From a virus: 64,000 nucleotides of DNA. Of the stretch, positions 1,291 through 63,160 are shown one piece after another. The notes below the pieces were generated by a model. That model did not search any database. It saw only the letters and a program-made list of their open reading frames with translations, and had not been told where the DNA came from. The translations under genes and the position numbers were made by a program. The DNA lies in IMG/VR virus record IMGVR_UViG_3300008050_000026, positions 33,075 through 97,074 of that record; one strand, 5' to 3'. Every line of letters starts with the position of its first letter. Positions within the stretch are counted from its first letter, which is position 1.

Positions 1291-1985
1291 TAGTACCAGA
1301 ACAAATCGTAAGGGATGCATTAGAAAAGATCTTGGATTTCATTAAAACAGATTTTGATACTGCATCTAATGAAAGTGAAAGTTATCTGCATAGAGTGTTG
1401 GGTCTTGATGATGACTTGAAATTGACTAACAGGTATGAGTTCTATAAACAAGCAAAAGCGCTATTTACAGATCAACCTGATGGTAGACGAAGATTGAAAA
1501 CTCATTTGTTCTTCAATGCTGAACGACATGGAGCACCTACAATGCATATCATGCCTTCAAATGATACACCTACACCAAGTGGAATTGGTTTGAACCAAGG
1601 AAATTATGAAGGAATTGTGTCTGGAGATGAAGATGGATATTTGAACGAGTTGATGACAAGGGCATATACTTCACAGATGCCAATGGTATTCACATCAGAT
1701 AATCCTTCTGAAGTTCTCATGATGTATTATTTCGTAAGACAGCTTCTAATACCAATGTTCAATCATTTTGAAATGAAAGGTTTGAAGAACTGTACAGTTA
1801 GTGGTGCACCAATTAATATAGAAGAACATTTAGTACCAAAAGGAATTTTTGCGAAACAGTTAACTATGACCTATTATAATGAACTGAATTCGGTAAACTT
1901 TTATACTTTAGCAAAAATCAATGATCTCAATTTCATTCAAATAATTCAGGATGCCTTCGAAGACAATTCCATTAGCGGCTCGTAA
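1287..1985 (+). CDS. putative tail terminator/neck protein
   Basis: 232 aa, just upstream of the sheath; ends in EDNSISGS; positional call. Confidence 0.45.
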   Translation: MIVPEQIVRDALEKILDFIKTDFDTASNESESYLHRVLGLDDDLKLTNRYEFYKQAKALFTDQPDGRRRLKTHLFFNAERHGAPTMHIMPSNDTPTPSGIGLNQGNYEGIVSGDEDGYLNELMTRAYTSQMPMVFTSDNPSEVLMMYYFVRQLLIPMFNHFEMKGLKNCTVSGAPINIEEHLVPKGIFAKQLTMTYYNELNSVNFYTLAKINDLNFIQIIQDAFEDNSISGS

Positions 1986-2469
1986 AGGAGTTCAAGTAGA
2001 AGATGGCAAAGTAATTGCTGTCTATCAAAGAGGAGATAGTTGGAAACCATATTCAGATCAAGAGTCTGATAATGCTATCGAACTAATTGACAAATACCTT
2101 GATGGATTGAAAGGACCTAAAGCAACTGAGGCTTCTGAAGTCAGTAAGACGACTGAAGATAAACTTCAGGACAAAATTGAAGATCTTGAAGAAACTATTG
2201 ATGCAGTTGAAGACTTGGTTGAAGATCTTAAGGCTGAAAAAGCCAGACGCCCACGAAATATTCAGGAGCAAGTAACGAGTCATATTCGTGAAATTGGTGC
2301 AGAGCAGTTGTTATTGGATAACCCAGTAAACCTATCTACAGTTCTTCGTCAAGTTACTATTGCTCAACCAAATTCGGTAAGATTTCTTAAGAAAAAGTAT
2401 GGTAATGCTACATTCACATACTCTCAATGGAAAGAACTTTTCCTAAAAGAAAACGTCATCGATAGTTAA
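1951..2469 (+). CDS. hypothetical protein with central coiled coil
   Basis: 172-aa ORF; heptad-like LQDKIEDLEETIDAVEDLVEDLK. Confidence 0.6.
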   Translation: MPSKTIPLAARKGVQVEDGKVIAVYQRGDSWKPYSDQESDNAIELIDKYLDGLKGPKATEASEVSKTTEDKLQDKIEDLEETIDAVEDLVEDLKAEKARRPRNIQEQVTSHIREIGAEQLLLDNPVNLSTVLRQVTIAQPNSVRFLKKKYGNATFTYSQWKELFLKENVIDS

Positions 2470-2475
2470 AATGAT

Positions 2476-2483
2476 TATATTTG
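2476..2483 (+). promoter_or_regulatory. Bacteroidota-type -7 promoter element upstream of the sheath gene
   Basis: TATATTTG matches TAnnTTTG in the intergenic gap before ATG 2522. Confidence 0.45.
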
Positions 2484-2521
2484 ACACAGATAACATCGGT
2501 CTTTTTGAAGATAATTAGATA

Positions 2522-4174
2522 ATGGCAACAGAGTTCACGTTTGACGGAAAAACGATAATCATCCCAGGTACTCATTCACGTTTAGTTAGTGGAGTAAAGA
2601 ACCAACCAGTAGAACTTTCTTATGGAACAGCACTTTTCATTGATACTGGAAGTGGTGCAGGATACGGAGGAGGTGCTGGAATAAATGGGGTTACAGCTGA
2701 TAGGAAAGATGCTTTTTACGAATTTGACAATCTTCGCGATTTTCAAAATTTCGTTGGGGGAAACCTACCTTGGTTACTTGCTACACCATTATTCAAACCT
2801 GCAGGATCTGGTATTCAAGGTCTTTCAAAACTTATTTACGTACGAGCTGCCAGAACAGCCCCCGGAACTTTAACAATTGAATTTGTAGGTGATGGAACGG
2901 CTTCAGTATCTACTTCAATCAACAATGGTGGATCATTAACCATAAGAACAAAATACGAAGGGCTTACTGCAAATGGTGCTTTATCACCAGACCTATCAAG
3001 ATTGTCAAGAGGTTTTGGTGTAACAATGGAAGCCGGCATTGATGATACTGCAAAATTTGTATTAAAATTCTGGCGAGGTGCTTTCACTGGAAACGATGCA
3101 AATGGATTTCCACATGATGGAATTGCTGAAAATGATGGTAATCCAATTCTTCTTACAACAAGTCCAGAATTTGACAACGTTGCTGAATTGGTAACATGGA
3201 TGCAGGGTGATTTTGAATTCAATGGTTTCTTTGAACTTACAGGTTCAGCAGTAAATGGTACAGGTGCTGTTGATCAATACGACCTTTTAGATTTTGGAAC
3301 AATTCAATTGTTTACAGGGGGAGCAGAAACATTTGGATCAACAAGTTTAGATGATGTTCTTGAAGATATTGCAAACATGGATTTCAGTTTCATTCTTTGT
3401 GATAGATATGGTACTGAGTCACAGCATGGAAACAATTTCAGAATTGCTGCCGCTGCAAACGATCACAAATACGAACCAGAAGTTTACATAGCATCTCAGG
3501 ATGATAGATCTGGTTTTGCTTTATCAAAAGCTGATTGTGTATACTATGATAATGAGAACACTACTGTAGTCCATGGTGCTGTAAGGATTTCAAATCGAAA
3601 TTCAGCATTGGGTTATAGGGTCTATTCATCGATATACAAAGCAGCTGGACTATTAGGGCGTGAAGCAGGTCGTCCACCACAAGTACCTTTGACAAACAAA
3701 AATATTGCAATCTCTGGTGAGGAGCATGCACTATCGGAAAAAGAAGCTAAGCAGGCTTTGAAGATAGGTTTGCTTGTAACATGGAAAGACAATGGTAAGT
3801 TCGTTTGTATCAAAGGTGTAAACTCACTTCAAAAAAATACTTACTTGTTGAACGAGGATGGAACAACCCACTCTAAGCAATTGCGAAGAATGGGTCGTCA
3901 ACTCAACAAGGAGATCATCATCAATTCAAAAGCTCAATTGCTTGATCAAGAAGAAGGAGTTAACAGAAATACACTTTCTGAAGCTGATGTGAAAACATGG
4001 TTATTCGGTTATTTGAAACTGAAAACAGCTGACTCTGAAACTGATAACTTGGTGATCTCACAAAGAAATATAACAGTTACGAGAAATCAGGATTTATACG
4101 ATGTCGAATATGAGGTTGTAATGAATACTGAAATATCGTTCATCTTATTCACAGGTAAAATCGTAGATTTGTAA
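2522..4174 (+). CDS. contractile tail sheath protein
   Basis: 550 aa; N-terminal 'IIPG', 'PPQVPLTNK', C-terminal 'KGVNSL' and 'YDVEYEVVMNTEISFI' typical of sheaths; followed by a tube-sized gene. Confidence 0.88.
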   Translation: MATEFTFDGKTIIIPGTHSRLVSGVKNQPVELSYGTALFIDTGSGAGYGGGAGINGVTADRKDAFYEFDNLRDFQNFVGGNLPWLLATPLFKPAGSGIQGLSKLIYVRAARTAPGTLTIEFVGDGTASVSTSINNGGSLTIRTKYEGLTANGALSPDLSRLSRGFGVTMEAGIDDTAKFVLKFWRGAFTGNDANGFPHDGIAENDGNPILLTTSPEFDNVAELVTWMQGDFEFNGFFELTGSAVNGTGAVDQYDLLDFGTIQLFTGGAETFGSTSLDDVLEDIANMDFSFILCDRYGTESQHGNNFRIAAAANDHKYEPEVYIASQDDRSGFALSKADCVYYDNENTTVVHGAVRISNRNSALGYRVYSSIYKAAGLLGREAGRPPQVPLTNKNIAISGEEHALSEKEAKQALKIGLLVTWKDNGKFVCIKGVNSLQKNTYLLNEDGTTHSKQLRRMGRQLNKEIIINSKAQLLDQEEGVNRNTLSEADVKTWLFGYLKLKTADSETDNLVISQRNITVTRNQDLYDVEYEVVMNTEISFILFTGKIVDL

Positions 4175-4186
4175 TAACGAAACACA

Positions 4187-4690
4187 ATGGATAGAGTATT
4201 AACAGGCGCGATAGCATTGGTCAAGAGTAACGGAGTGGTTATTGGCAAAATGCGTGACATTAACATTCAGGAGAATAATCAACGTCAGCGAATTGGTGGA
4301 ATAGGAACTATACTACCAAAAGAAATTGCTGCCACGATGTGGTCAGGAACCTTATCATGCTCATTCTTTGAAGTTGACTTTAAGAAATCAGGTATACCAA
4401 AAGCAATAAGGAGAGATACCGATGGAGTTGCTGCATCTCAGGCTGGAGGAACTAATAACCCCTCCTTTGAAGATCAAATTGTCCTTGATGAAGTTGGTGT
4501 CCAAGTTGATGTTTTCAAAAAGGTCACAGATGTGATAGATCCTACTACAGGATTGATCAGGCCAAAACTCGAACCATACGCAGTAGTTGGAAGATGTTTC
4601 ATCGAAGGTGATGGCGTTCAAATTGCTGATGGTCAGGTTTCAGGAAGAAATCAGTCATTCCAATATATGGATCCAGTTCTCGAACTATAA
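4187..4690 (+). CDS. tail tube protein
   Basis: 167 aa directly after the sheath; 'IGGIGTILPKE', 'SGTLS' and 'FQYMDP' tube-like pattern; followed by a terminator. Confidence 0.8.
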   Translation: MDRVLTGAIALVKSNGVVIGKMRDINIQENNQRQRIGGIGTILPKEIAATMWSGTLSCSFFEVDFKKSGIPKAIRRDTDGVAASQAGGTNNPSFEDQIVLDEVGVQVDVFKKVTDVIDPTTGLIRPKLEPYAVVGRCFIEGDGVQIADGQVSGRNQSFQYMDPVLEL

Positions 4691-4721
4691 TCCAACCCTT
4701 TATTTTCCAGTTGACACTGTG

Positions 4722-4748
4722 GACGCCTCCAAATGGGGCGTTTGCTTT
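4722..4748 (+). terminator. intrinsic terminator after the tail tube gene
   Basis: GACGCCTC-CAAAT-GGGGCGTT stem-loop followed by a T-rich tract. Confidence 0.6.
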
Positions 4749-4749
4749 G

Positions 4750-4771
4750 TAATAAAAAATGATTATTTTTG
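4750..4771 (+). promoter_or_regulatory. conserved 22-bp phage promoter motif
   Basis: TAATAA-AAAA-TGATTA-TTTTTG; one of about ten intergenic copies. Confidence 0.7.
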
Positions 4772-4789
4772 CTTCAAATAAATCGGAAA

Positions 4790-5173
4790 ATGAAAACACC
4801 TGAAAGAACAATCAAAGTAAAACTATTAGAAAAGGAATACGAGGTTGAATTTCCAGCCACAAGAGGCCTTATCGAAATCAGTATCCAGAAAGCTAATATC
4901 TCAAGACAGACGTATGATGCCATTTCGGCTTCAGGATCTGCTGATGATACATATTCAAGGTTCACAATTGATATGATAGCAACATTTCGGGTAATGATCA
5001 AAGACATTGAAAAAGATCTGAATGTTAGTAATTTCTTGGATCTTGATCCTTTACATGCTAAACAGTTCTTAAGCGTGTATCTTAAAGAGGTTCTACCTTG
5101 GATTGTTGAATGGCAAAAAGTTCTGAACGCAGAACCTGAAGAGAAGAAAGAACCTTCAGATGGCCAATCATGA
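4790..5173 (+). CDS. tail assembly chaperone
   Basis: Between tube and tape measure genes; ATG 4790 preferred because it lies downstream of the promoter motif. Confidence 0.6.
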   Translation: MKTPERTIKVKLLEKEYEVEFPATRGLIEISIQKANISRQTYDAISASGSADDTYSRFTIDMIATFRVMIKDIEKDLNVSNFLDLDPLHAKQFLSVYLKEVLPWIVEWQKVLNAEPEEKKEPSDGQS

Positions 5174-5501
5174 TAATTTTCTAAGCAAAATTGAAGATAT
5201 TCGTGGCTTTCTGATTGAATGGAACAATACTTATCCATTTGATAGAATATACAGGAAGAAATATAATATCCCGTTTGGTTCTGAGGAACACCTCAGCATA
5301 AATCAAATAGACGTATATTTGGATATCGCTGAGGATAGGCTATTCAATAATCTGTTCGTTGACCTGTCAGAAGTAGATAGTGGTAGAAAGAAATACAAGC
5401 ACGGTGAAATCTATCGCGAAGAAAAAGAGTCAGAAGAGGTAATCTCTGAATTGTTCGACAAGATCGACATTAACGATATACAAGACAATGGCGGACAATA
5501 A
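5160..5501 (+). CDS. second tail assembly chaperone-like protein
   Basis: 113 aa immediately before the tape measure gene; 'YRKKYNIPFGS' motif; positional call. Confidence 0.5.
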   Translation: MANHDNFLSKIEDIRGFLIEWNNTYPFDRIYRKKYNIPFGSEEHLSINQIDVYLDIAEDRLFNNLFVDLSEVDSGRKKYKHGEIYREEKESEEVISELFDKIDINDIQDNGGQ

Positions 5502-7425: not shown

Positions 7426-10139
7426 TGAGGGAAGAATTATTTGAATACACTCATCAAGATAAGTCTCAAGCTGTATTGGGTGACATCGTTGAAGATCTTG
7501 CTTCTGTATTGTATGGTTCGCTATTACATGAAGTACTTCTTGTCAAAGATGATAATGGTGTTGATAATATATCCCGCCTTGTTGAGTTCTATACTGAGGA
7601 TGATCTTCAAACAAACTCAGAAGACTCGATCAGATCGTTTGCGGAAGCGATAAAAGAAACAAAGGCAACTGAGAATGATGATCAATTAAAAAATCTTAAG
7701 GTCTACAACCAGACAGTATTCATGGTCGATATGCATCTTGTTGAAAGGATGCTTGTATTTACACAATCAACTCAACAAGTTGATCAATCGTCATATAATG
7801 CATTTATGTCAGAGGCGCATTATCGTTTGCTTCGAAGTCCATTACATCAACAGGTTCTTGAGTCAAAAAATGTTTCAAGAGGTGTTGCAAAGAATTTATT
7901 TGTACATGCTTCTGTATGGGGGTGGTCAAAAACGCTTTCACTTGATAATGATGGAAACTATAAAGATGTAATTGTAAATTGCTCGCCTTTCCTGTTTGAT
8001 CTTACAACTGAAACAAATGAAAATGGTGGAAGTTTTCAAATGTCATTAGCTCCAGTTCAAGCTGAATATAGAGATGATAATTGGCAGATCAAAGATGGTT
8101 CATTGAAAGGATCACCTGACAATCGTATTTCACATTCCAATTTGCATACCAATAATTTTAACAGGTCTGATTATTATTTTGAAAAGATATTTCAGGAAAA
8201 TGACGTGATTTTCATCAGGTTTGAAACACTTGAGATAGAAAAACAATCAAGATATGATAATGCAAGGAAATTATTCATAGATAAGACTGAAATACCAAAC
8301 AAGCCTTATGATATGATAGCCCTCATTGATGGTGTTGATATAACAACTGATCCTGAGTCAAATGAAGTTTCTGTTAAAATAAGAGGTAGGGATCTTACAA
8401 AATTACTTATTGAGGATGGTGTGTATTTCTATCCACAGTTATTTGCAACAGGTGGAATGTTCGCTAACATATCAGATGACGATAAGCTTAAGAGATATGA
8501 CGGACAATTACAGAGTCTGTTTGTGTTTTCATTCAAGAACGTTTCGACAACGTTAAAATTCATCATGAATGCACTTTCAAATATTGAAATCGTTTCCGAT
8601 AAATTATTTGAACCATATAGTAACAGTAAAGACTTTGATGGGAATATTAAGGATAGACGAAATTATTTCTATTCTGAAAAGGAATTGACAGAAGCCTTAG
8701 CGTATGAAAAACGTGATACTGATGTCAAAAAGGTAATATCAGAAATTGAAGATGCAAGGGCATTAAGGGGGTTAATAAATTCAACACCTCTTGCAATATT
8801 ACAGAATTTGAACTTATTTGTTGCTCATTTGATAAAATATGATTTGTTCAATGTAGTAGATGGAGGAGATTTTGTTGGATTACCTAAAGGTTGGGGAGCT
8901 ACTACGTATGATGGTCAAAATCTAAAGGCTAATGAACTTCCTTTATTTTCTAAGGATACTTTGATGTCAAAGTTACCTGGGCTCAATAGGATGATTTTGA
9001 ATTTGACGAAACCCACATTGATAACTTCTCAAGGTACAATACATCAAGACATTGACGTACTTGGAATAGTAACACTTGTTCGAGAAAATCTTGTTTCTGT
9101 GGGTGTGACAAGTAATTTTAGACAATTACCCACTGAAAATCCTGCTAAAGGAATTTGGCAGATCATAAATCTTGTAATTGATGAGTCGGTTCAACAAAGA
9201 CGTTTGACTGACTCAAGTATTGGAAATGAGCATGGTAGTCTCATTAATGCTGTTAAAAAGATTTGTCAATCACCTTTTGTAGAGTTTTTTACAGATACAT
9301 ATTATGATAAATTTTATTTCGTAGCAAGAAAACAACCTTTCGATAGGAAATCATTGGAAAGTGTTTTGAATGGTACAGTTGTAATTGATACCACAAAAGA
9401 AAGTTACGGGAATGATTATGGTCCTCTTATTGTTGATATTAATGAAGAAGATATTCTTCAAGAAAACATAACGTATGGTGATACTGCATTTTCATGGTAT
9501 TACTTGAGACCTATAAATATGTTGAATGGTGGTGTAAATGATATGAACTTTGCTTATTTGAAAGCAGTTTATTTCAAACGCTATGCTGAGATATGGGGGT
9601 CCAAGCCTTATGACATTTCGACGAATTACATTGATTACTATTCAGTTCAGGATAAGGAGTTGAGAAACTCAGTTGGTCGATACATAAAACAAGGTATCTA
9701 TGATCTGAAATTCATTATTGACATTCACGCGCATTTACCTTTTACAAGAAAAGGGAACATAACAATAACACCCAACCGTAGAATAAAACGAGCAAATTAT
9801 GTACGTCTTGTTTCAACAGGTGAGATATTCTATGTTGATGGAGTGGAACAGAATATGGCTGTTACTAATAGTGAAATAACAAGAAGCACAAATCTTACTA
9901 TTTCAAGAGGTATGGTTGAGAAACATATCAACCCACCTGAATTAAGTCCAAATCAAGATAGTGGTCTTTATTCGTATTTTGACATCATAAATACAGACAT
10001 TCCAGAAGGTATTTTTGAACAAAAGTCAGATGATGGTCAAGCGTTAAGTGCTAACGAATACAACGAAAAGATCTTGGCTAACTGGGGTGTAAATGATGAT
10101 GTATTTGATTTTTTCTTAAAAAAGAAACAATTTCTATAA
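7425..10139 (+). CDS. baseplate hub / tail-associated protein
   Basis: 904 aa after the tape measure gene; 'IRGRDLTKLL', 'PFVEFF' and 'FYVDGVEQ' hub-like segments. Confidence 0.65.
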   Translation: MREELFEYTHQDKSQAVLGDIVEDLASVLYGSLLHEVLLVKDDNGVDNISRLVEFYTEDDLQTNSEDSIRSFAEAIKETKATENDDQLKNLKVYNQTVFMVDMHLVERMLVFTQSTQQVDQSSYNAFMSEAHYRLLRSPLHQQVLESKNVSRGVAKNLFVHASVWGWSKTLSLDNDGNYKDVIVNCSPFLFDLTTETNENGGSFQMSLAPVQAEYRDDNWQIKDGSLKGSPDNRISHSNLHTNNFNRSDYYFEKIFQENDVIFIRFETLEIEKQSRYDNARKLFIDKTEIPNKPYDMIALIDGVDITTDPESNEVSVKIRGRDLTKLLIEDGVYFYPQLFATGGMFANISDDDKLKRYDGQLQSLFVFSFKNVSTTLKFIMNALSNIEIVSDKLFEPYSNSKDFDGNIKDRRNYFYSEKELTEALAYEKRDTDVKKVISEIEDARALRGLINSTPLAILQNLNLFVAHLIKYDLFNVVDGGDFVGLPKGWGATTYDGQNLKANELPLFSKDTLMSKLPGLNRMILNLTKPTLITSQGTIHQDIDVLGIVTLVRENLVSVGVTSNFRQLPTENPAKGIWQIINLVIDESVQQRRLTDSSIGNEHGSLINAVKKICQSPFVEFFTDTYYDKFYFVARKQPFDRKSLESVLNGTVVIDTTKESYGNDYGPLIVDINEEDILQENITYGDTAFSWYYLRPINMLNGGVNDMNFAYLKAVYFKRYAEIWGSKPYDISTNYIDYYSVQDKELRNSVGRYIKQGIYDLKFIIDIHAHLPFTRKGNITITPNRRIKRANYVRLVSTGEIFYVDGVEQNMAVTNSEITRSTNLTISRGMVEKHINPPELSPNQDSGLYSYFDIINTDIPEGIFEQKSDDGQALSANEYNEKILANWGVNDDVFDFFLKKKQFL

Positions 10140-11059: not shown

Positions 11060-11083
11060 ACATATATTTGTAAAAACATCGTT

Positions 11084-13262: not shown

Positions 13263-13267
13263 AAGAC

Positions 13268-14473
13268 ATGGCACTTAATATTAGACCAAGTACAAGCAAA
13301 GAAAGAAAGGAACTATTTGTCGAAGCTATGCTTAATAAGACAGATAAGGTTACTAAGGTTTCGCCAAATTCAGTTTTGAGTGGAGTTGCTTTTGGTGTAG
13401 GTAAGATTGCAGGAAAGGCTGAAAAAGACATTTTCCTTGCTGTGGCCCAATTATTTCCTGATCATGCGTATGGTGAACAATTGGATCAGGTGGCTGAAAA
13501 TTTTGGTATTGCTCCAAGGTTTTTGCAATCTGGATCATCAACCTATTTAAGATTAGTTGGTGATGTTGGTACACAATATGCTATAAACACTCACATTTTT
13601 TCAGGTACTAATGGTATTCAATTCCAACTTGAAGAAGATGTTACGATAGGGGCTGCAGGATTTACATATACCAAAGTTAGAAGCGTTGATACTGGAGTTC
13701 AATCAAATGTAAACCCAGGAGATGTTTCCAACGTTACACCTGTACCTGTAGGACATACATACGTCGTGAATGAATACATTTCAACAGGTGGTAGAGAAAA
13801 TGAGTCAGATGAGGATTTTCGAAATAGAATAAAGGAGGGAGCCAATATTCTTGGAAAGGCAACAATTTCATCACTTGAACAGGCGATGATGAAGATCAAC
13901 ACAAATGTTCTTCGTGTATTTTTCTATGGACGTGATGATAATGGCAAATTGGTTCTTGCAATCCAATCACAAAATGGAATTGATTTCAACGAACAGGAAC
14001 TTGATGAATTGCTTGATAAAGCTGATAAGTACATGGCTTTTACAGAACTCAGGCCTTATGGTACACAAAGTTTTGGTGTGAAACTAAGAAACGTTGAATA
14101 TGATCCTCTTGATATTTCGTTCAGATGTAACCTATTCAATAACTTTGATCCAGATGCTGTAAGAAAAGAAATTCAGATCAACATCAGTAAATACCTTGAT
14201 TTTAGAAACTTTACTCAAGGTGGGATTGTTGAATGGGATAATATACTGGAGATTGTGAAAAAAACAAAAGGTGTGAAGTACGTGCCAGACCAATTCTTCT
14301 ATCCTAATAATGATATACAAACAAGTAGGGTGAAGATCATGCGCCTCAGGGGCTTCCTAATGTTAAACCTTGAAGGAACAGTTATCAGTACGCTTCAAAA
14401 TACATTGTCGCCAGTTTACTATCCCCAAGAGGCAGATTTTTCATTCCAACAAACTGTATTAGCTGAAATATAA
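13268..14473 (+). CDS. baseplate J-like wedge protein
   Basis: 'AYGEQLDQVAENFGIAPR' and 'GGRENESDEDFRNRI' are hallmark Baseplate_J motifs. Confidence 0.88.
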   Translation: MALNIRPSTSKERKELFVEAMLNKTDKVTKVSPNSVLSGVAFGVGKIAGKAEKDIFLAVAQLFPDHAYGEQLDQVAENFGIAPRFLQSGSSTYLRLVGDVGTQYAINTHIFSGTNGIQFQLEEDVTIGAAGFTYTKVRSVDTGVQSNVNPGDVSNVTPVPVGHTYVVNEYISTGGRENESDEDFRNRIKEGANILGKATISSLEQAMMKINTNVLRVFFYGRDDNGKLVLAIQSQNGIDFNEQELDELLDKADKYMAFTELRPYGTQSFGVKLRNVEYDPLDISFRCNLFNNFDPDAVRKEIQINISKYLDFRNFTQGGIVEWDNILEIVKKTKGVKYVPDQFFYPNNDIQTSRVKIMRLRGFLMLNLEGTVISTLQNTLSPVYYPQEADFSFQQTVLAEI

Positions 14474-14802: not shown

Positions 14803-15329
14803 TGGCTTCTGGTTCAAAAAATCTTGGTCTCGTAAAAGCAATTCATGCTGGAAATACTGCTCCAGCGAATACTGCCATGATCTGGTATAACACTTTAACA
14901 TTCAGGCACTACTATCATAATGGAACAATTTGGGTTCTTTTTGGTACTGGAGGAGGAGCTGGTGGAACGCCAAAAGTAACCGTTGAAATGGGTTATACAA
15001 CCAACGTTTCAATAAATGGTCAGCAAAATGGTATAAATTTTGATCCTACTTTCAAAATATCAACTGCGCCAAAACCAGTACCTGTACCTTTTAGAGTTAG
15101 CGTTGACAGAAATGGAAATGATGGGGAAGTTGAATTAACGTTTACAGATGCAGCAGGAGGTATGCATAATATGGATGGTGTATCGTATACTATGCCAGCA
15201 AATATGAGTGAAGTACTTTTCATGTTTGAAACTACACAAGCAAATCCAGTAGGTGTTTATACATTGGAAGTAAATTGTGTTTTGGGATCTTATTCGTTTT
15301 CACGAGAATTAACGATAGAAATTATTTAA
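14802..15329 (+). CDS. tail fibre/appendage protein with shared N-terminal anchor
   Basis: First ~50 aa nearly identical to 15331..16419; Gly linker; Ig-like beta C-terminus. Confidence 0.55.
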   Translation: MASGSKNLGLVKAIHAGNTAPANTAMIWYNTLTFRHYYHNGTIWVLFGTGGGAGGTPKVTVEMGYTTNVSINGQQNGINFDPTFKISTAPKPVPVPFRVSVDRNGNDGEVELTFTDAAGGMHNMDGVSYTMPANMSEVLFMFETTQANPVGVYTLEVNCVLGSYSFSRELTIEII

Positions 15330-15330
15330 G

Positions 15331-16419
15331 ATGGCTTCAGGTACAAAAAATCTTGGTTTAGTTAAAGCAATACACGCAGGAAATACTGCGCCTGCTAATA
15401 CATATATGATCTGGTACAATACACTTGCATCAAGGCATTATTATCACAATGGGTCAAGCTGGGTCGAATTAGGTACTGGAGGATCTGGAGCATTTGAAAC
15501 AATTCCACATTTTGTTTATCAGCCTCTTGGAGTTGATAGTGGTATGGTCTATAATGATTTTGAAATCATGATGGATGATGTTATTGAACAGAAAGGCAAG
15601 AAAACAATCTATTTTGATAGAACATTTTTATCAGCTTTGGATGCAATGGAAATACCAGTCAAATCTGGTGGTGGTTCTTGGGATTTTATAGATGTTTCGT
15701 TTCAGTGGTTATTTGAGTCAGTTTACGATACATCAAACATTACAATAAGCGTAGCAGATGGAAATTTATGGGAAAATTTTCCAGACAATTTCTCTTTTAT
15801 AAGGTTAATCTTTAATAACACTTCTTTTCCAGTCTATTCAGATAGTTCTGGACAAAAACTCAGCCTTTTAGACTCAGCTACAACGTTTGAAAACCTTGGT
15901 TCTGTTGAAGTTATGAATTTGTCAGGTTCAGCGGAATTTGTTTTTGGTTTGGAAGAAGGTTCAAAGATGAAAAATGGTTCTTATGAGATTTTCAATTTAG
16001 TTGGAAATTCGTCTATAAATCTTGCGTTGATTGGTGCTGGAGAAATTGAACAAGACGTCATAAGAGGAGCGATAACAGCTTATGTCGATATAAATTTGAC
16101 CCACGGAGGGTCAAGTTATAAAGAAACGCAAACCAATTATGCTGGTACAGTTGAATTACAAAGTAAAAATGCTTCAAGAATTATGTTTGGTGTTTTACCA
16201 AATTTGGGTTCAATATCTTTTGCACATAATTTTGGTAATGAGTTTTTGCACATCGAAGTTTATAGAAACTCGGGTTTTCCAAAAATAAGATTAGGGACTG
16301 TTTCGGAAGTAAGAGTTCAAATAGATGATGATGATAATATTACAATAACAGATCTTTTTGGGTTAGGCGGAATAAACATTCAAGTAGTCATTGCATCAAA
16401 ACCTCAACAGATAGACTAA
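15331..16419 (+). CDS. tail fibre/receptor-binding protein with shared N-terminal anchor
   Basis: Same N-terminal module, followed by an unrelated beta-rich body. Confidence 0.55.
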   Translation: MASGTKNLGLVKAIHAGNTAPANTYMIWYNTLASRHYYHNGSSWVELGTGGSGAFETIPHFVYQPLGVDSGMVYNDFEIMMDDVIEQKGKKTIYFDRTFLSALDAMEIPVKSGGGSWDFIDVSFQWLFESVYDTSNITISVADGNLWENFPDNFSFIRLIFNNTSFPVYSDSSGQKLSLLDSATTFENLGSVEVMNLSGSAEFVFGLEEGSKMKNGSYEIFNLVGNSSINLALIGAGEIEQDVIRGAITAYVDINLTHGGSSYKETQTNYAGTVELQSKNASRIMFGVLPNLGSISFAHNFGNEFLHIEVYRNSGFPKIRLGTVSEVRVQIDDDDNITITDLFGLGGINIQVVIASKPQQID

Positions 16420-18263
16420 TGGCAGTAATAGACAATCGTTTGACAGAAGTTGGTGATGTTCTTGTAATACAGACAGAAATCCCGCTTGTAGGAATAATTG
16501 CGCTACTTGGCTTTACAGATCTTACTACAGGAGAAGTACCCGGGTCTCGTGAATTTGATAAGAAGTTCAGGTATTCATTTGATGGAGGAGTAAATTGGTC
16601 TGACTTTGTTGACCTTACAACTTCAAATATTCTTGAAATACCAATTCAGGATACTGACCTCTTCATTTTAGAATATCTATACATAAGAACAGGTACTGAT
16701 AGTTCAGGTGAATTGACAGTTGAAGCTGTACAATTGAATTCACAAACTATTTTAGGAACTTCTGATGATGTATATGGTAATTCAATTTTCAAAGAGTTCT
16801 ATAATAGCTACAGTATCTGTACGCTTGCATGGTCAATCAATGTGCTTGAAAAACTATACAGAGATGGAATAGTACCTAAGTACATAAAACGAGGAAAAAG
16901 AAACGATACTCGAGAGGATCAGGATTATCTTGATTTTTGGTTTACTGTATCATTGTTCTATTCATATTATGTATGTCTGGCTCGTGAGTTCAAAGATTTC
17001 TATACAAATTCTGATTTGTTAAGGGAGTTCCTTATTGAAAGGAACATGTTCATGTGTAATGATATTCAGATGGCTGATATGCTTTACATCATGAGAATGT
17101 ACCACAGTGAAATGTCTCATAGAGGAACAGAACAGATATTCCTTAAAAAAGGCGTCTCATCATACGAAGATGAAGATAATTCATTTAGTGAAAGTTTCAG
17201 TCAAAGCCTAAGTGGTTCATTTAGTCATAGTTACAGTTCAGTAGATCCATTTTTCTATCGTCAGGTAGATGGGGAACTTTTAAGATTGATTTGCTATAGT
17301 TTATGCGATGAATTCATTTGGGGACTTGGAAGGGCTGAACACACAAGTTGGAATATGGGTAATGGAAGTCCATGTTATAGAGGATTGATGCCTCAACACC
17401 AATTCAGTAAAGGTTATGAAATAACAGAAGATGTTATCGATCTATCTGTATACCCTTTAATTGAAGATCAACTCATTTCTATTGCAGCTGATGGCGATAA
17501 GTATGTAATGGATATTGATGTACCTGTACTTGGTCCTTTTCCAGCAGGAATAGGACAACTTACAAATCAAGACATTGATAAAATGTTTGTTGTTGAACCT
17601 AATATGTCATATCAACTGACTTTTCAAATAAAAATAGGGCCAAAACTTGATAAGATTATGAATATTGGGTTTTCAATGGTGGATCAATTTGAAAACAATA
17701 TAATACCAACTTCTTTTGTAACTGGAACGTCTACAAATTATGCTATACAAGCTGAAGCATTATCTCGAAGTGATGTTTATTACAATATTCGTGTAATTCT
17801 TTGGGCTGCAAATCAAGGTAACGCTTGGGATCCAGCTGAAATTTATGAGAAAGAACGTATTGTTGAGCATAGTGGTAATTATTACGTATCAGAAAAGGTT
17901 ACTAATTTTGGAATAACACCCGGAACTACTTCTGATTGGAGATTGGTAGATACTGAAGGTTTAGTTTCAATAGGACAACCAAGTATTAAAGCAGGTGAAA
18001 ATCTTAAAATGAGTTCAAATGTATGTAAGGTAATGCCAATCATACATAGTTCAGTACCTGCTAATCCAGCATCTATAAGAATACACAACTTGAAATTCAA
18101 ACCTCTTCATTTTGAATACAGCCATTATTTCATCAATGTGAAGAATTTCGTCCATATATTTATGGAACAAAACAATGGGCGTTATACGAACGAAGAAGTA
18201 GAAGAAATAATGAGGCGTTATTTGTTTCCGTACAATACCTCGTTTAGAAACACTTATTTATGA
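16419..18263 (+). CDS. baseplate/tail structural protein with Ser-rich insert and CBM5/12-like motif
   Basis: 614 aa; SFSESFSQSLSGSFSHSYSS insert; 'WDPAEIYEKERIVEHSGNYY...PGTTSDW'. Confidence 0.55.
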   Translation: MAVIDNRLTEVGDVLVIQTEIPLVGIIALLGFTDLTTGEVPGSREFDKKFRYSFDGGVNWSDFVDLTTSNILEIPIQDTDLFILEYLYIRTGTDSSGELTVEAVQLNSQTILGTSDDVYGNSIFKEFYNSYSICTLAWSINVLEKLYRDGIVPKYIKRGKRNDTREDQDYLDFWFTVSLFYSYYVCLAREFKDFYTNSDLLREFLIERNMFMCNDIQMADMLYIMRMYHSEMSHRGTEQIFLKKGVSSYEDEDNSFSESFSQSLSGSFSHSYSSVDPFFYRQVDGELLRLICYSLCDEFIWGLGRAEHTSWNMGNGSPCYRGLMPQHQFSKGYEITEDVIDLSVYPLIEDQLISIAADGDKYVMDIDVPVLGPFPAGIGQLTNQDIDKMFVVEPNMSYQLTFQIKIGPKLDKIMNIGFSMVDQFENNIIPTSFVTGTSTNYAIQAEALSRSDVYYNIRVILWAANQGNAWDPAEIYEKERIVEHSGNYYVSEKVTNFGITPGTTSDWRLVDTEGLVSIGQPSIKAGENLKMSSNVCKVMPIIHSSVPANPASIRIHNLKFKPLHFEYSHYFINVKNFVHIFMEQNNGRYTNEEVEEIMRRYLFPYNTSFRNTYL

Positions 18264-18275
18264 TAAATTTGTAAC

Positions 18276-20747
18276 ATGTCGATCTTAAAATTTGCACCAG
18301 ATCTATTTCTTGAACAACAGGAGCTTAATAGGTTAAGAAAGTTCCTTGATGATGAAGGCTTTAGAATAAATCTAATTGACAATACTCAGAAATGGGGATT
18401 GATTGATAAGCAAAGTTTCTATCCAGATAATTCTGTAAAGGATCAATTCACAAATGCATTGATCACTGAGGATGTTGGTTTAACAATCAAGCATAATCCA
18501 ATACGAGCATTGAATGCTGATGGAAGACTTATTTATAGGGCTGCCACAAATCAGATTGCTGTTACAGGTGATAATAACTGGTATTGGGTTAAGATCTCGT
18601 GGGTTGCCTCTCCTATTGAACTTGGTGTTTGGGCATTGGATGCTGATGGAAATCTTACAGGAACAGGTGGAGAACTTCTTACGATATTAAGAGGTGAACC
18701 TAATTTTCCTTCAAGAATAAAATTCACGAATGCTATAAATAACACTGCTGAATATGATGTTGTTGAAGTCATTGATGACAATAACGCTATTCTAAATGGG
18801 GTATCTGGTACATTCAATGTTGAAACAGGTTTAGAATTAGCAGTTGTTGGAACATTCACTGAAGGAGTAGCCCCACCAGCTGCAAATAAATATCCATTCC
18901 AATATGATAGTTGCGTATTTGAATTAATCCTTGAAGCAACACCAAACACACCACCTACATTAGTTGAAGGTCAAGAATTCGTTATTGCTCGTGTAAAGAG
19001 TGATGGTGTAACAATGGTTATCCAAGATAAAAGGGTTGAAAGATGGACAACGAAAGCAAATTATAGGCTTTCAAAAGTTGATGAAGTAGATAACCCTTTA
19101 ATAGGAGTTGGTAGAATAATGTTCGACCACGAATATTCTACAAAGGATAGGAATAAGGTTTTCATGCAATGGGCATTTCAATCTACAAACTATACTGTAA
19201 ATACAAATTTGAATATCATAACGATCAACGCTGGATCTGGTGGTAATTTCAAAACTGTTGCTGATTTTACAGATGGTGATTTCAATGGATGGAGATTGTA
19301 TGCTACCAACGGAAAATACTTGAGGATCGTAAATTCTGTTCTTACAGGAGGTCAGATCAATTGTTATTTTGACAGTCTCGAAGTTGATTATTTCTCGACC
19401 GATGGAGGTTCAACATTTACAGGTTCTCAAATTGTAATCACACCTGATGCTGAAAAGATTGAAATTGTATTCGATGCTCAGGATATTTCTTCAACATCAG
19501 TTGTAGAGACATTTCCAAATCTTGAAGAAACGTTTGAATTCAATATCAATGAAGTAGAAGCATTGTGTCCACTGTTAGTATATGATGATCCAGTCGCGTA
19601 TTATTCTGCTAAATACAGATACAAGACAAATGATACATATACTGAATATGTAGATCTTCCTGAAGATACATCGTTTGGGTATTATACTGAAAACGCATAC
19701 GAGGATGATGGTTCATTGAAACCAATTGTTCTTGCAAATAGTTATGCTCAAAACGTAGCTCAAGGATACATCAAGACATATACTGGAGGCGTTATTGAAC
19801 TCATTTTACATGGTACAGCTTACTATCCTCTACTTGCAACAATTGTTACAGGTGATAGACTTGGTGTAGATCGTGTAACATTAAATCCTGCAATTACTCC
19901 ACCTTACACATTGGTTGTTGGTGCAAATAGGATCTATCAGTACTTTGAAGGGGGACCTTTTTCTTTGACACAGGATTTTTTCATCAATATTGAAAACACA
20001 GGTGCTATAAATGGTAACAGGTTTTTCTTACATTTTGCCAATGAACCCCAGTTAAATGGTTTTAGGTTAAGAATAGTTACAAATTTCGTTAACATTTCTA
20101 CATTTGATCTAATTGAGGAGTTCACAACCTTTGATGATACATTTGCTTCGTTGGGACATCCTGTTCAGTTTGAAGTAAGACATGATGGAACACAATGGGA
20201 AGTTGAACATAGCACCTATGATAGAGGACTTGTTGCTTTGGAATACCTACAAATACTGTTTGTAAACGCATTGGTTGCAGCAAACGCTGCCGATATTACA
20301 GCACTTCAAGCTTTCCAAGCCGATGTTGAAAGTGCATGGACTTCTTTTTCAAGCCCAACAACCAGATACATAGACCAATTTGGTTTACCTGTTAATGGTA
20401 CTGTACTACTCACTTCAGGAGGATATAAAATAGTCGGTAGAGTTGCTACAATTCAAATACAAGTAACTATTGATACAATTACGGGTAATTCTGGCACTGG
20501 ATTTCAGTGGATCGAGGTTGATTTACCAGCAGCTTTAGAAAACTTTGGTGGAGCCGCTGAACCAGTTGGAATGTGTAAAGGTGCAAGAAATGGTACAAAC
20601 ATTTTCGAATGGCAAATGACAACTACGATGGTAGCTGGCGGTGGAAGTACTGTTAGATTTGTTTATGGTAATAGTATGACTGATGTTTCACCAATTGGTT
20701 CAGGTTCTCAAACTATTAGAGCAACCTTTCAAATAGGCGTATTATAA
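18276..20747 (+). CDS. tail fibre / baseplate protein
   Basis: 823 aa, beta-rich, with a short coiled coil and C-terminal 'GGYKIVGRVATIQI...VDLP' fibre-tip-like domain; TAAATTTG 5 nt upstream. Confidence 0.65.
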   Translation: MSILKFAPDLFLEQQELNRLRKFLDDEGFRINLIDNTQKWGLIDKQSFYPDNSVKDQFTNALITEDVGLTIKHNPIRALNADGRLIYRAATNQIAVTGDNNWYWVKISWVASPIELGVWALDADGNLTGTGGELLTILRGEPNFPSRIKFTNAINNTAEYDVVEVIDDNNAILNGVSGTFNVETGLELAVVGTFTEGVAPPAANKYPFQYDSCVFELILEATPNTPPTLVEGQEFVIARVKSDGVTMVIQDKRVERWTTKANYRLSKVDEVDNPLIGVGRIMFDHEYSTKDRNKVFMQWAFQSTNYTVNTNLNIITINAGSGGNFKTVADFTDGDFNGWRLYATNGKYLRIVNSVLTGGQINCYFDSLEVDYFSTDGGSTFTGSQIVITPDAEKIEIVFDAQDISSTSVVETFPNLEETFEFNINEVEALCPLLVYDDPVAYYSAKYRYKTNDTYTEYVDLPEDTSFGYYTENAYEDDGSLKPIVLANSYAQNVAQGYIKTYTGGVIELILHGTAYYPLLATIVTGDRLGVDRVTLNPAITPPYTLVVGANRIYQYFEGGPFSLTQDFFINIENTGAINGNRFFLHFANEPQLNGFRLRIVTNFVNISTFDLIEEFTTFDDTFASLGHPVQFEVRHDGTQWEVEHSTYDRGLVALEYLQILFVNALVAANAADITALQAFQADVESAWTSFSSPTTRYIDQFGLPVNGTVLLTSGGYKIVGRVATIQIQVTIDTITGNSGTGFQWIEVDLPAALENFGGAAEPVGMCKGARNGTNIFEWQMTTTMVAGGGSTVRFVYGNSMTDVSPIGSGSQTIRATFQIGVL

Positions 20748-21361
20748 TGATAGAACTACGATATACAGGGGCTACTAATAGTTCAGATACTCAGACTATT
20801 GCTTCAAAGTCATTGGGGGGTTATGTTTCACCTTCGAAAGTACCAAATGATGATTTTAGCAATTTGTTTGATGAGATATCGTTGATGTCAAAACAGTTGA
20901 AGAAAAGGGAAGCAAGGTTGATTGCTATTGTAAACATTTCATCAACAGAAGACTATGGTTCATTATCAGCCATGTTCACATTGCAGAATAATTCGGATGT
21001 AAAATACAAAGTTGCTTTTGTGGCTCCATCAGAAGATAGTGATGGACTGTATTTTGAACGATTGAATTCACAACGTGAATTACCAGCATACGCAACATTC
21101 CAAGACATAGTTACTCTTCAAACATTGAACCTTGGAACACTTAATGCTGGGAAGGCCTTGGGAATGTGGTTAATAAGGGAACTTACAGATGAGTTTGTTG
21201 CACCAGTAGATTGTCAAGAACTTTATGACAATTACAAAGCTGAAACATCTCGTGAAACTGAAGAAAAACTTGCATTGACAATATCTTATGGTGATGACTC
21301 AGTATCAACATCTGTATCAACATCTGTATCGTCTTCTGGATCATTATCAAAGGTTCTATAA
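20747..21361 (+). CDS. virion structural protein with Ser/Thr-rich C-terminal tail
   Basis: Last gene of the tail module; 'SLGGYVS' and 'NLFDEIS'; ends DDSVSTSVSTSVSSSGSLSKVL. Confidence 0.55.
   Translation: MIELRYTGATNSSDTQTIASKSLGGYVSPSKVPNDDFSNLFDEISLMSKQLKKREARLIAIVNISSTEDYGSLSAMFTLQNNSDVKYKVAFVAPSEDSDGLYFERLNSQRELPAYATFQDIVTLQTLNLGTLNAGKALGMWLIRELTDEFVAPVDCQELYDNYKAETSRETEEKLALTISYGDDSVSTSVSTSVSSSGSLSKVL
21302..21330 (+). repeat. 12-bp tandem repeat encoding VSTS units
   Basis: GTATCAACATCT x2 plus GTATC. Confidence 0.8.
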
Positions 21362-30145: not shown

Positions 30146-30161
30146 TAAATTATTATTTTTA
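30140..30161 (+). promoter_or_regulatory. conserved 22-bp phage promoter motif
   Basis: AAATAA-TAAA-TTATTA-TTTTTA; ATG 6 nt downstream. Confidence 0.7.
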
Positions 30162-30166
30162 CATAC

Positions 30167-62988: not shown

Positions 62989-63160
62989 TACAGAAAGCAG
63001 GAAAACCAAAAGCAGGTACAGTACATCCTTCAATTAAGAAATTTGATTGGAATATAGTAACTGGAAATACTGGTAAATGTATATGTGCAAGACCAAAAGC
63101 AATGAGTTATGGTAGAATGATCTCGTGCAATGGTTGTGGAAAACTAATATCAAGTTTCTA

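Follow-up and report, generated by a model that had tools for sequence, protein, structure and literature searches.

Serine-rich tracts in an uncultured phage

The DNA considered here, termed the window, is a stretch of 64,000 nt from the 97-kb genome of an uncultured phage. It starts at genome base 33075, and positions labelled "genome" refer to the whole record. A Baseplate_J match is the sole anchor in the structural region and places the tagged genes at 14.8-21.4 kb in a contractile-tail baseplate module; the terms sheath, neck and baseplate protein are used as gene-order names only. Features are collected in Table 1.

Table 1. Serine tags and candidate glycan genes; positions are those of the window unless labelled "genome"
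Feature	Position	Strand	Remarks
EDNSISGS (FEDNSISGS, then stop), C-terminus of 232-aa neck-region protein (1287-1985)	1956-1985	+	weak; chance-level singly
GDGTASVSTS mini-insert, 550-aa sheath-position protein (2522-4174)	2888-2917	+	weak; chance-level singly
Baseplate_J protein	13268-14473	+	Pfam Baseplate_J 8e-19
Acid-led (Ser-X)9 tag EDEDNSFSESFSQSLSGSFSHSYSS, loop residues 250-274 of 614-aa baseplate-region protein (16419-18263)	17166-17240	+	
Tag DDSVSTSVSTSVSSSGSLS of 204-aa protein (20747-21361)	21293-21349	+	lengthened by exact 12-bp repeat
Sulfotransferase	49530-50150	+	Pfam Sulfotransfer_2 4e-9
GDP-fucose synthase-like SDR	50147-51076	+	Pfam Epimerase 9e-59
GDP-mannose 4,6-dehydratase	51073-52068	+	Pfam GDP_Man_Dehyd 6e-130
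Tag SESSVSVSSSGSSVSTP of 178-aa orphan protein (54429-54965)	54912-54962 (54965 with stop)	+	C-terminal
Second sulfotransferase-like gene	63125-63799	+	Pfam Sulfotransfer_2 9e-6, Sulfotransfer_1 6e-4
Putative Stealth-like hexose-1-phosphate transferase, 245 aa	genome 12809-13546 (outside window)		Pfam Stealth_CR2 and profile match
GT2-like gene	genome 10116-10805 (outside window)		0.96 to GT2 clusters in Atlas
GT-like/FkbM methyltransferase fusion	genome 8762-10123 (outside window)		

Short serine tracts, here called tags, are found in six proteins. They are led by acidic residues, are free of Lys and Arg and comprise 8-25 residues. Five had been listed in a preliminary description of this DNA, and all five are present where it placed them. 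Its 12-bp tandem repeat in the tag of the 204-aa protein (the 20747 protein) is also confirmed, at 21302-21330, with 2.4 copies and 100% matches. The sixth tagged protein is encoded outside the window; it has 107 aa (genome 7406-7729) and the C-terminus FSGSVSSSGSMSGP. The carriers had been described as unrelated structural proteins. The tracts are real, but one carrier, the 178-aa protein encoded from 54429, is an orphan whose structural role is only putative.

The frequency of alternating Ser was compared with that in 2000 within-protein shuffles of 105 plus-strand proteins. Runs of at least three number 14 (7.2 +/- 2.7 expected), runs of at least five number four (0.04 expected) and runs of at least seven number two (0 expected). 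Chance does not account for the three long tracts; SISGS and SVSTS, taken singly, are indistinguishable from it. The heptapeptide SVSSSGS is common to three unrelated C-termini and is specified by differing codons, which points to a constraint on protein rather than DNA. The earlier remark that no such tracts were noticed in the replication enzymes needs qualification, as similar runs of three Ser do occur in replication-type proteins (22045, 38387, 39427 and 56801). Inspection of the capsid candidate (genome 29467-30942) and of the tube-position protein (4187-4690) revealed no tag.

Tags in homologous proteins

A Ser tract is present in the same loop in 19 of 61 homologues of the 614-aa baseplate-region protein, and in 17 of these 19 at least two acidic residues stand just upstream. 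The median loop is 38 aa with the tract vs 12 aa without it. In some relatives the tag of this protein is found in other loops, near residues 92, 330 and 398. The tracts behave like portable tags under selection rather than accidents: the same proteins carry them in relatives, while sequence, length and even loop position vary.

The 20747 protein ends in DDSVSTSVSTSVSSSGSLSKVL followed by the stop codon (21293-21361). The pattern G-[DE]-x-S-V-S-x-S-x-S forms the C-terminal end in six of its seven database homologues, and in Stealth-negative relatives (see below) the family ends with the last beta-strand, without a tail. The 54429 protein displays SVSSSGS at its C-terminus, in codons other than those of the two further C-termini; a search of 5.8 billion proteins gave no homologue.

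One check proposed in the preliminary description was whether the tags are predicted to be exposed disordered loops; the tracts that could be modelled fall in regions predicted to be disordered. The 20747 protein is modelled as a beta-sandwich (pTM 0.73) with a predicted disordered tail at residues 187-204 (pLDDT ~30). The loop tag of the baseplate-region protein is modelled with no secondary structure (pLDDT 22-36), the entire middle region of this protein being poorly modelled.

The two weak tags also have counterparts. Neck-region homologues end in DQSESISIP in G013, which is Stealth-positive, and in DPDISSSI in G005; no acid-led Ser-X-Ser end is found in those of seven complete Stealth-negative genomes. 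An alignment at the sheath site displays a 5-6 residue acid/Ser insert (ASVSTS, SDSSA, DGSES, DGSSS, DISVS, DASVSG) in the tagged clade only. Such an insert is missing from the remaining 13 relatives, most of which are GG-GANGG-like at this point. G022 has a large unrelated insertion at this site.

A Stealth-like gene

The Stealth family includes the Neisseria capsule polymerases SacB and XcbA, M. tuberculosis CpsY and human GNPTAB (PMC1285062, PMC5974469, PMC7729866). Four conserved regions have been defined (Sperisen 2005; PMC1285062): CR1, an N-terminal IDVVYTF-like motif; CR2, of ~100 residues and the most conserved; CR3, of ~50 less conserved residues; and CR4, with a near-universal CLND/CIND. 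Pfam Stealth_CR2 is matched in five of five phage homologues, with a best E of 1.4e-8 at 35.3 bits, just below the curated cut-off of 39.4 bits. Searched against the PDB, the phage profile matches the catalytic domain of the GNPTAB GlcNAc-1-phosphotransferase over positions 15-160 (E 5e-9), and it matches CpsY at 8e-4.

CR1 is present, the alignment of the five homologues opening with K-[IL]-D-[IV]-[IV]-x-x-L-G throughout (KLDIVIPLG in G000). In the putative CR3 zone the alignment to GNPTAB extends through an H-x-P that is invariant in the five homologues, and there is some similarity between the C-terminal F-P-x-K-S-x-[FY]-E and the end of GNPTAB. The CLND/CIND of CR4 is not kept; the phage proteins have [FL]-[FL]-N-[YF] (F-L-N-Y), in which only the Asn is largely retained (four of five). 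No hydrophobic segment is found in the protein. On these sequence grounds it is filed as Stealth-like, in a divergent minimal branch. In this genome, 35-40 kb separate the gene from the tail genes that are tagged.

Co-occurrence of tags and the Stealth gene

A six-frame profile search across the phage's own group detected the Stealth gene in G000, G003, G009, G013 and G020 only. In the 10 records that are at least 90% complete, three of three Stealth-positive genomes are tagged at both sites compared (baseplate-region protein and 20747-family tail) and none of seven Stealth-negative genomes is tagged there (Fisher p = 1/120, from few genomes that are related to each other). G020 has a Stealth gene (28% identity) yet no detectable tag, in a record 78% complete. 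The tree separates the G000/G009/G003 clade, G013, which is sister to the untagged Stealth-negative G012, and L130/G029, nested within untagged Stealth-negative phages. At least three independent co-gains of tag and Stealth gene are indicated by this topology.

The gene also stands beside Ser-tagged genes in other phages. In L130/G029 it lies within the baseplate cluster, directly after the gene for a 283-aa protein ending in DESSSSSS and directly before that for the baseplate-protein homologue. The 38 kb available of this record, which is 33% complete, contain no further homologue of the candidate glycan genes of the phage considered here. In three high-GC phages (L135, L137, L141) the gene directly upstream of Stealth, two genes after the tape measure, encodes 17-28% Ser with many DESSS tracts. 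In L139/L140, DDESSSS-type tails are found on three or four of the proteins encoded close to Stealth.

Of the proteins encoded in Stealth loci, ~2% have an acid-led Ser tract, vs a single protein out of 1094 across eight Stealth-negative genomes. These loci were collected by a Stealth search, so an effect of Stealth is inseparable from that of its usual companions, the GT2-like, TOD1-like and methyltransferase genes. Genes for phage glycan enzymes (Stealth, GT2-like and methyltransferase) co-occur with Ser-rich extensions of virion-region proteins, the association expected for virion O-glycosylation.

Might the tags instead be unmodified low-complexity tails and loops, serving as flexible hydrophilic spacers or sticky patches, with slippage-driven length and a link to glycan genes that reflects shared ancestry? 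One tag has recently been extended by the exact 12-bp repeat, the tags differ freely in length and sequence, and one clade comprises most tagged genomes. Ser-rich tails are also present in Stealth-negative genomes (an 825-aa protein of G012, a 190-aa protein of G022) and missing from Stealth-positive G020. However, the same three proteins are tagged again in the independent Stealth-positive lineage G013, tags adjoin the Stealth gene in unrelated phages, and at the tag sites of complete Stealth-negative relatives the loops are short and the tails missing. The consistent absence of Lys and Arg, the acidic lead and the recurrence of SVSSSGS in differing codons also argue against low complexity, and this explanation appears unlikely.

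Proposed modification of virion proteins

The tags probably serve to anchor a coat of sugars to the virus particle. It is hypothesized that the phage encodes enzymes that modify its own proteins, with the acid-led Ser tracts as acceptor peptides; this would take place in the cytoplasm of the host, before the particle is assembled or while it is. Priming would most likely be due to the soluble minimal Stealth-type hexose-1-phosphate transferase; a nucleotide sugar would be attacked and the sugar-1-phosphate placed on the Ser hydroxyl by a phosphodiester (Ser-O-P-sugar). Extension or capping of the sugar could follow through the nearby GT2-like and FkbM methyltransferase genes. GDP-fucose synthesis and the two sulfotransferases could, in this phage alone, act in the same way or supply the donor (e.g. 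for Fuc-1-P-Ser as in Dictyostelium). Baseplate, neck and sheath-position proteins would then carry a fringe of anionic glycans on their exposed loops and tails, and this fringe could plausibly shield the particle or tune host contact. This reading, in which a sugar is joined to the tags by a phosphodiester and fucose and sulfate are optional decorations, has about an even chance of being correct.

The order of steps could be reversed, as in a direct O-glycosylation of the mycobacteriophage kind: the products of the GT2-like genes (genome 10116-10805 and 8762-10123) would prime Ser, and Stealth would then add sugar-phosphate to the sugar. In most loci the genes flanking Stealth include those for GT2-like, TOD1/MUCI70-like, Glyco_trans_1_2 and DXD-type transferases, and the closeness of the genome 10116-10805 protein to Atlas GT2 clusters (Table 1) fits as well. 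Characterised Stealth enzymes have sugar hydroxyls and not Ser as acceptors (PMC7729866, PMC5974469), which also counts against direct priming by Stealth, and glycosyltransferases are implicated in mycobacteriophage virions in the work of Freeman 2023 as related in PMC12619734. In L130/G029, on the other hand, Stealth adjoins a tagged baseplate gene, with no homologue of this phage's GT2-like genes in those 38 kb of structural genes of a 33% complete record, and priming by GT2-like enzymes is judged distinctly unlikely.

The preliminary description assigned the tags to the fucose and sulfate genes and pointed to a fit of D-S-V with the Bacteroidota sequon D-(S/T)-(A/I/L/V/M/T), which would belong to a host O-glycosylation system. 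The gmd, fcl and two sulfotransferase genes are genuinely present; in G003 and L132 the distance between gmd and Stealth is 1-3 kb, and a Sulfotransfer_4 gene adjoins Stealth in L139. Nevertheless, the predicted co-occurrence fails in two complete tagged genomes, G009 and G013, which are without gmd, fcl and sulfotransferase (no SDR epimerase/dehydratase and no Sulfotransfer_2 or Sulfotransfer_4 gene); this is an outcome that the description itself had listed as a refutation. In 27 related records gmd is found once, in a record without the tag in the baseplate-region loop, and the second sulfotransferase-like gene has no homologue in 20 relatives fetched whole. The tags of related phages track the Stealth gene rather than the fucose/sulfate genes. 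Moreover, such enzymes produce or alter a donor and do not attach it to protein, and GDP-fucose could serve the DNA-modification module at 28267-34396 or change host surface glycans. As for the sequon, only DDSV in one tag fits; homologous tags open mostly with DES or EES, also DAS, so the sequon is not kept. Bacteroidota O-glycosylation has exported proteins as its substrates, not cytoplasmically assembled virions. It is very unlikely that either system writes the tags. The genes at 49530-52068 are possible lineage-specific donors or decorators, and fucose and sulfate may decorate the glycan in this phage.

Another modification of Ser that gives an anionic patch without sugar, by phosphorylation or by direct O-sulfation, is highly improbable: acid-led Ser clusters do look like acidophilic kinase sites and the two sulfotransferases have no assigned acceptor, but no protein kinase family was found among the proteins scanned with Pfam, and there are tagged relatives without sulfotransferases.

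Comparison with known systems

Serine-rich repeat adhesins and Ser-Asp repeat proteins of Gram-positive cocci are glycosylated by GtfA/B and SdgA/B. The phage tags share the alternating Ser-X of the adhesins, where it provides dense cytoplasmic O-glycosylation sites. Adhesin repeats span hundreds of residues and are exported by dedicated SecA2/Y2, whereas the tags have 8-25 residues and belong to virion-region proteins; no GtfA/B-type pair or accessory Sec genes were found among the proteins scanned with Pfam.

Virion O-glycosylation is described for mycobacteriophages Che8, Corndog and Myrna, as summarized from Freeman 2023 (Cell Host Microbe 31:1216) in PMC12619734 and PMC12801897, with glycans at the C-termini of capsid and tail-tube proteins (PMC12619734). 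As far as these summaries go, the resemblance to the system proposed here lies in phage enzymes that would decorate their own structural proteins, in C-terminal extensions as sites and in shielding as a suggested role. By the same accounts, the phage differs in its carriers (baseplate-region, neck and sheath-position proteins and two small proteins of unassigned role), in a conserved partner that is a putative Stealth sugar-1-phosphate transferase rather than glycosyltransferases, and in acid-led Ser-X repeats that include internal loops.

Compared with known Stealth proteins, the phage protein has a recognisable CR1-like IDVV start and CR2, and a possible CR3. It differs in being reduced to a core of 245 aa, which lacks additional domains, a signal peptide, a membrane segment and CLND, and in the protein Ser acceptor proposed here in place of sugars.

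A chemical precedent is Dictyostelium phosphoglycosylation, in which sugar-1-phosphate is attached to Ser in serine-rich tracts. As summarized in PMC13738210 and PMC1285062, GlcNAc-alpha-1-P-Ser is found on the serine-rich domain of the cysteine proteinase cprG, and Fuc-beta-1-P-Ser and, on spore coat SP96, Fuc-GlcNAc-1-P-Ser are also described (Ord 1997; Srikrishna 1998; Mreyen 2000). The Ser-specific enzymes had not been assigned to genes as of 2005 (PMC1285062). Dictyostelium is eukaryotic and uses the secretory pathway, whereas the phage system would be cytoplasmic, its chemistry being suggested by enzyme family and gene association only. Fucose-1-phosphate is transferred in Dictyostelium, and this phage has genes for GDP-fucose synthesis.

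Setting of the tagged proteins

The source is a single phage contig of 97,074 bp, of which bases 33075-97074 are covered here; all window genes are on the plus strand and the G + C content is ∼35%. Judged by the sheath-position protein, the phage is closest among cultured phages to Chryseobacterium phage MA9V-3 (39% identity) and to Bacteroides phages (28%). As this protein has no sequence relative in the PDB, the label "sheath" reflects gene order only. A PHROGs search of the tagged proteins gave no match, and a Pfam search gave none for most tail proteins. The window also contains a nucleotide-modification cluster as well as genes for a helicase, a primase and PolIII-alpha. Next to the large terminase are gmd, an fcl-like gene and the first of two sulfotransferase genes of the window.

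Coordinates of the features discussed, in this phage and in other records
Feature	Source	Position	Strand	Remarks
Portal gene	this phage, genome	1320-3035		
310-aa head-region protein and small protein after it	this phage, genome	6427-7729		outside window
107-aa protein	this phage, genome	7406-7729		outside window
Region searched in Atlas	this phage, genome	7742-8740		no lead
FkbM methyltransferase fusion	this phage, genome	8762-10123		near Stealth-like gene
GT2-like protein	this phage, genome	10116-10805		near Stealth-like gene; Atlas score 0.96
Stealth-like gene	this phage, genome	12809-13546		245 aa; outside window
Neck-region protein	this phage, window	1287-1985	+	
Sheath-position protein	this phage, window	2522-4174	+	
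Baseplate_J protein	this phage, window	13268-14473	+	anchors contractile-tail baseplate module
Baseplate-region protein	this phage, window	16419-18263	+	614 aa
20747 protein	this phage, window	20747-21361	+	204 aa
Nucleotide-metabolism genes	this phage, window	28267-34396	+	beside polymerase
825-aa homologue of 18276-20747 protein	G012 (L048)	16249-18726	-	Ser-rich tail
Poly-Ser ORF	G017 (L086)	93146-93568	-	
Poly-Ser ORF	G024 (L093)	1999-2547	-	
Small tailed protein region	G032	7745-9138		
Stealth-flanking genes	L139	5676-6242		
Stealth-flanking genes	L129	6586-9288		
Mycobacterium phage Fionnbharth loci	L159, NC_027365.1	1273-1959 and 9165-10094		

Serine tracts and chance

The preliminary description reported Ser tracts in five structural proteins, and all five are present where it placed them. 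When residues were shuffled 2000 times inside each of the 105 plus-strand proteins, alternating-Ser runs of at least three were expected 7.2 ± 2.7 times and were observed 14 times. Runs of at least five numbered 4 against an expected 0.04, and there were 2 of at least seven where the shuffles gave none. The loop of the baseplate-region protein and the C-termini of the 20747 protein and of the 54429 protein, a 178-aa orphan, are clearly not products of chance. Because the shuffles give 7.2 three-Ser runs, SISGS of the neck-region protein and SVSTS of the sheath-position protein are individually unremarkable; similar three-Ser runs do occur in replication-type proteins, where none had been noticed before.

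A fourth long tag, meaning a short acid-led Ser tract free of Lys and Arg, forms the C-terminus of the 107-aa protein. The exact heptapeptide SVSSSGS is common to the C-termini of the 107-aa, 20747 and 54429 proteins and is encoded by different codons in each, which indicates that the constraint acts on the peptide and not on a DNA motif. A regulatory DNA repeat read through as protein is dismissed on these codon differences and on homologues that retain the composition of the tags but not their sequence. The 20747 tail owes extra length to a 12-bp repeat, which was confirmed to be exact; slippage therefore alters tag length. A homologue search with the 54429 protein found none.

In two phages an acid/Ser tail is found on the small protein encoded directly after a conserved 310-aa head-region protein: FSGSVSSSGSMSGP on the 107-aa protein of this phage and DDISASGSYSYEH in record G032. 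These small proteins have no detectable similarity to each other.

Conservation and predicted structure of the tags

What is conserved is the presence of the tags and not their sequence. The baseplate-region protein has 63 database relatives. In 19 of the 61 alignable homologues a Lys/Arg-free Ser tract lies between invariant R-G-T and V-D-G-E motifs, and it is preceded by at least two acidic residues in 17 of these 19. The loop is ∼38 residues long with the tract and ∼12 without it. Other relatives have the Ser tract in different loops, near residues 92, 330 and 398. The 20747 protein has seven relatives, and the C-terminus of six of them conforms to G-[DE]-x-S-V-S-x-S-x-S.

The AlphaFold model of the 20747 protein is good (pTM 0.73) and consists of a beta-sandwich followed by a tail with pLDDT ∼30; a Foldseek search with it gave no convincing match. 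The model of the baseplate-region protein is poor (pTM 0.43), with a tag loop of pLDDT 22-36 predicted to have no secondary structure. Its C-terminal half (residues ∼340-560) is modeled as a lectin-type jelly roll for which Foldseek gave weak matches, with E about 3e-4 and target TM 0.4-0.58, to PL7 alginate lyases and CBM16/lectin domains. This model suggests a glycan-binding peripheral baseplate protein.

Fucose and sulfate genes as proposed partners

It had been proposed that the tags are acceptors for the fucose/sulfate machinery, to be checked by their co-occurrence with gmd, fcl and sulfotransferase genes. The related set comprises 27 IMG/VR records encoding the baseplate-region protein, of which 20 were examined as whole records. 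Only one of the 27 has gmd, and the baseplate-region homologue of that record is without a tag in the R-G-T/V-D-G-E loop. Record G009 (98,965 bp, terminal repeats, rated 100% complete) has a Ser tract in the baseplate-region loop and a 26-residue tag on the 20747-family protein; it has no gmd, fcl, SDR epimerase of any kind, Sulfotransfer_2 or Sulfotransfer_4 gene. The same genes are absent from G013, which is also complete and tagged. Such a result had been set in advance as refuting the fucose/sulfate link, which is therefore not supported. The Bacteroidota sequon is likewise not kept, because homologous tags start with DES, EES or DAS.

GDP-fucose might instead feed host surface glycans or genes beside the polymerase that look like a DNA-base modification module, a possible alternative consumer of nucleotide sugars. 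These encode dUTPase_2 plus HAD, a UDG-like domain fused to a kinase-like part, an SDR epimerase, a short thymidylate-synthase-like protein and a ThyX-like protein.

A Stealth-like gene accompanies the tags

Stealth proteins are a family of hexose-1-phosphate transferases with conserved regions CR1 to CR4. A Stealth_CR2 match was obtained for a gene outside the window and for its four homologues in related phages. A profile of the five phage proteins matches the GlcNAc-1-phosphotransferase catalytic domain (E 5e-9) and CpsY (E 8e-4). The N-terminus, K-L-D-I-V, is CR1-like and no membrane segment was detected; an S-D-D motif is conserved. CR4 is divergent and its CLND motif is not kept, hence the name Stealth-like. 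Supposed GT-like paralogues (alignment A5) were dropped, as their BLAST links ran via the FkbM part.

In a six-frame profile search the gene was found only in this phage, G003, G009, G013 and G020. Among ten records at least 90% complete, a small set of related genomes, all three Stealth-positive members are tagged on both the baseplate-region protein and the 20747-family tail, and none of the seven Stealth-negative members is tagged at either site (Fisher p = 1/120 by our own arithmetic, for genomes that are related). G013 is placed in the tree beside G012, which is untagged at these sites and Stealth-negative. In G013, short tags are present on three proteins that are also tagged in this phage: the baseplate-region protein (DESASFSISGS), the 20747-family tail (EENSISLSITV) and the neck-region tail (DQSESISIP). 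In the sheath-position protein, an acid/Ser insert of 5-6 residues is confined to the tagged clade. With this insert and the G013 neck tail, SISGS and SVSTS are rescued as probable members of the tag set.

The acceptor-tag idea is thus backed by comparison and its fucose/sulfate partner is not; the Stealth-like gene, rather than gmd, fcl and the sulfotransferases, becomes the candidate to pair with the tags. G020, 78% complete, has the gene, and no tag was found in it. One Ser-rich tail each is present in the Stealth-negative records G012 and G022. The tail in the complete genome of G012 (SGSVTSESSDLSSIS...) is either a counter-example or a hint of another writer enzyme. A scan with profile P0015 gave no match, and one with P0013 no further tagged genome.

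Two other Stealth-negative relatives, G017 and G024, have near-pure poly-Ser ORFs on the minus strand, with at least 40 Ser in a row. These may be spurious or represent a different kind of Ser-rich protein.

Stealth loci in unrelated phages

An IMG/VR search with the Stealth alignment yielded 22 loci. Tags were defined here as 6 Ser in 12 residues without Lys or Arg, plus a count of upstream acids; a threshold of 5 Ser in 8 residues overlooked tags with strict alternation, and 5 in 9 admitted noise. Acid-led Ser tracts are found in ∼2% of proteins in Stealth loci versus 1 of 1094 in eight Stealth-negative genomes.

L130 and L131 (records G028 and G029) belong to a branch of the tree that is otherwise untagged and Stealth-negative. 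Their Stealth gene is inside the baseplate cluster, directly after a 283-aa protein ending in DESSSSSS and directly before a homologue of the baseplate protein; the 38 kb examined contain no other homologue of the candidate glycan genes of this phage. The high-GC loci L135, L137 and L141 have, immediately upstream of Stealth and second after the tape measure, a gene whose product is 17-28% Ser with many DESSS tracts. At L139 and L140, three or four head-module proteins near the Stealth gene have DDESSSS-type tails, and a Sulfotransfer_4 gene is beside it.

A constant Stealth core is surrounded by a variable cassette, the companions being GT2-like, TOD1/MUCI70-like, Glyco_trans_1_2 or DXD-type transferases, methyltransferases, a sulfotransferase or gmd, depending on the locus. 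As the loci came from a Stealth search, Stealth is not separable from the accompanying glycosyltransferases. The flanking genes at L139 and L129 include Sulfotransfer_4, Methyltransf_24, a TOD1/MUCI70-like transferase and Glyco_trans_1_2.

Possible phosphoglycosylation of the tags

Enzymes of the Stealth family form a phosphodiester by moving hexose-1-phosphate from a nucleotide sugar onto a hydroxyl (PMC1285062, PMC5974469, PMC7729866); the acceptors of the known enzymes are sugars (PMC7729866, PMC5974469). In Dictyostelium, sugar-1-phosphate is attached to Ser in serine-rich domains, including as Fuc-beta-1-P-Ser, according to PMC13738210 and the reference list of PMC1285062. This chemistry and this precedent led to the proposal of sugar-1-phosphate priming on the tags. 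The soluble Stealth-like enzyme would prime the tags in the cytoplasm, and variable partner enzymes would extend or cap the primed sugar. GDP-fucose would either be the donor in this phage or, together with sulfate, serve as optional decoration. The chances of such a model appear about even. That a minimal Stealth enzyme in unrelated tailed-phage lineages writes sugar-1-phosphate directly on portable (D/E)-led Ser tags, here perhaps fucose-1-phosphate that is later sulfated, is a more doubtful suggestion. If direct writing is true, protein phosphoglycosylation would be known outside eukaryotes for the first time, and a genetically encoded tag-writer pair would set an anionic glycan at selected surface sites on baseplate, neck and sheath. 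A soluble writer of only 245 aa, paired with a short peptide tag, would make a useful tool.

To our knowledge, mycobacteriophages are the only phages with experimentally demonstrated virion glycosylation, which in their case blunts recognition by antibodies. If tail and baseplate proteins of phages in the sea and the gut were routinely tagged for a phosphate-linked sugar, many phages would differ in particle surface, host-range determinants and immune visibility from what protein sequences lead one to expect. Among demonstrated systems, the nearest is the O-glycosylation of mycobacteriophage virions, in which capsid and tail-tube C-termini carry the glycans (Freeman 2023, as cited in PMC12619734). 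The putative targets here differ in being at baseplate, neck and sheath positions, internal loops included; the tags also differ in their acid-led Ser-X form, and the conserved enzyme is Stealth.

Relatives of the Stealth-like protein

With 780 clusters at E <= 1e-30 and 3108 at E <= 1e-10, the Stealth-like family is large; a literature search found no paper connecting phages with Stealth proteins. Relatives of the phage protein (P0072-P0221) are mostly stand-alone and about 240-250 aa long. Fusions of 500-900 aa, in which the Stealth core is N-terminal, central or C-terminal, make up a sizeable minority.

Relatives in cultured actinobacteriophages (Fionnbharth, OneUp) open a way to experiment, and Fionnbharth-type phages are a possible laboratory model. 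Cluster-K-type mycobacteriophages in culture encode a Stealth-like gp6 that is ∼30% identical to the query across 67% of its length (E 1e-13). The capsid protein of Mycobacterium phage Fionnbharth ends in ...PDAGSGS. Stealth-like proteins are also encoded by the Gordonia phages OneUp and BrutonGaster.
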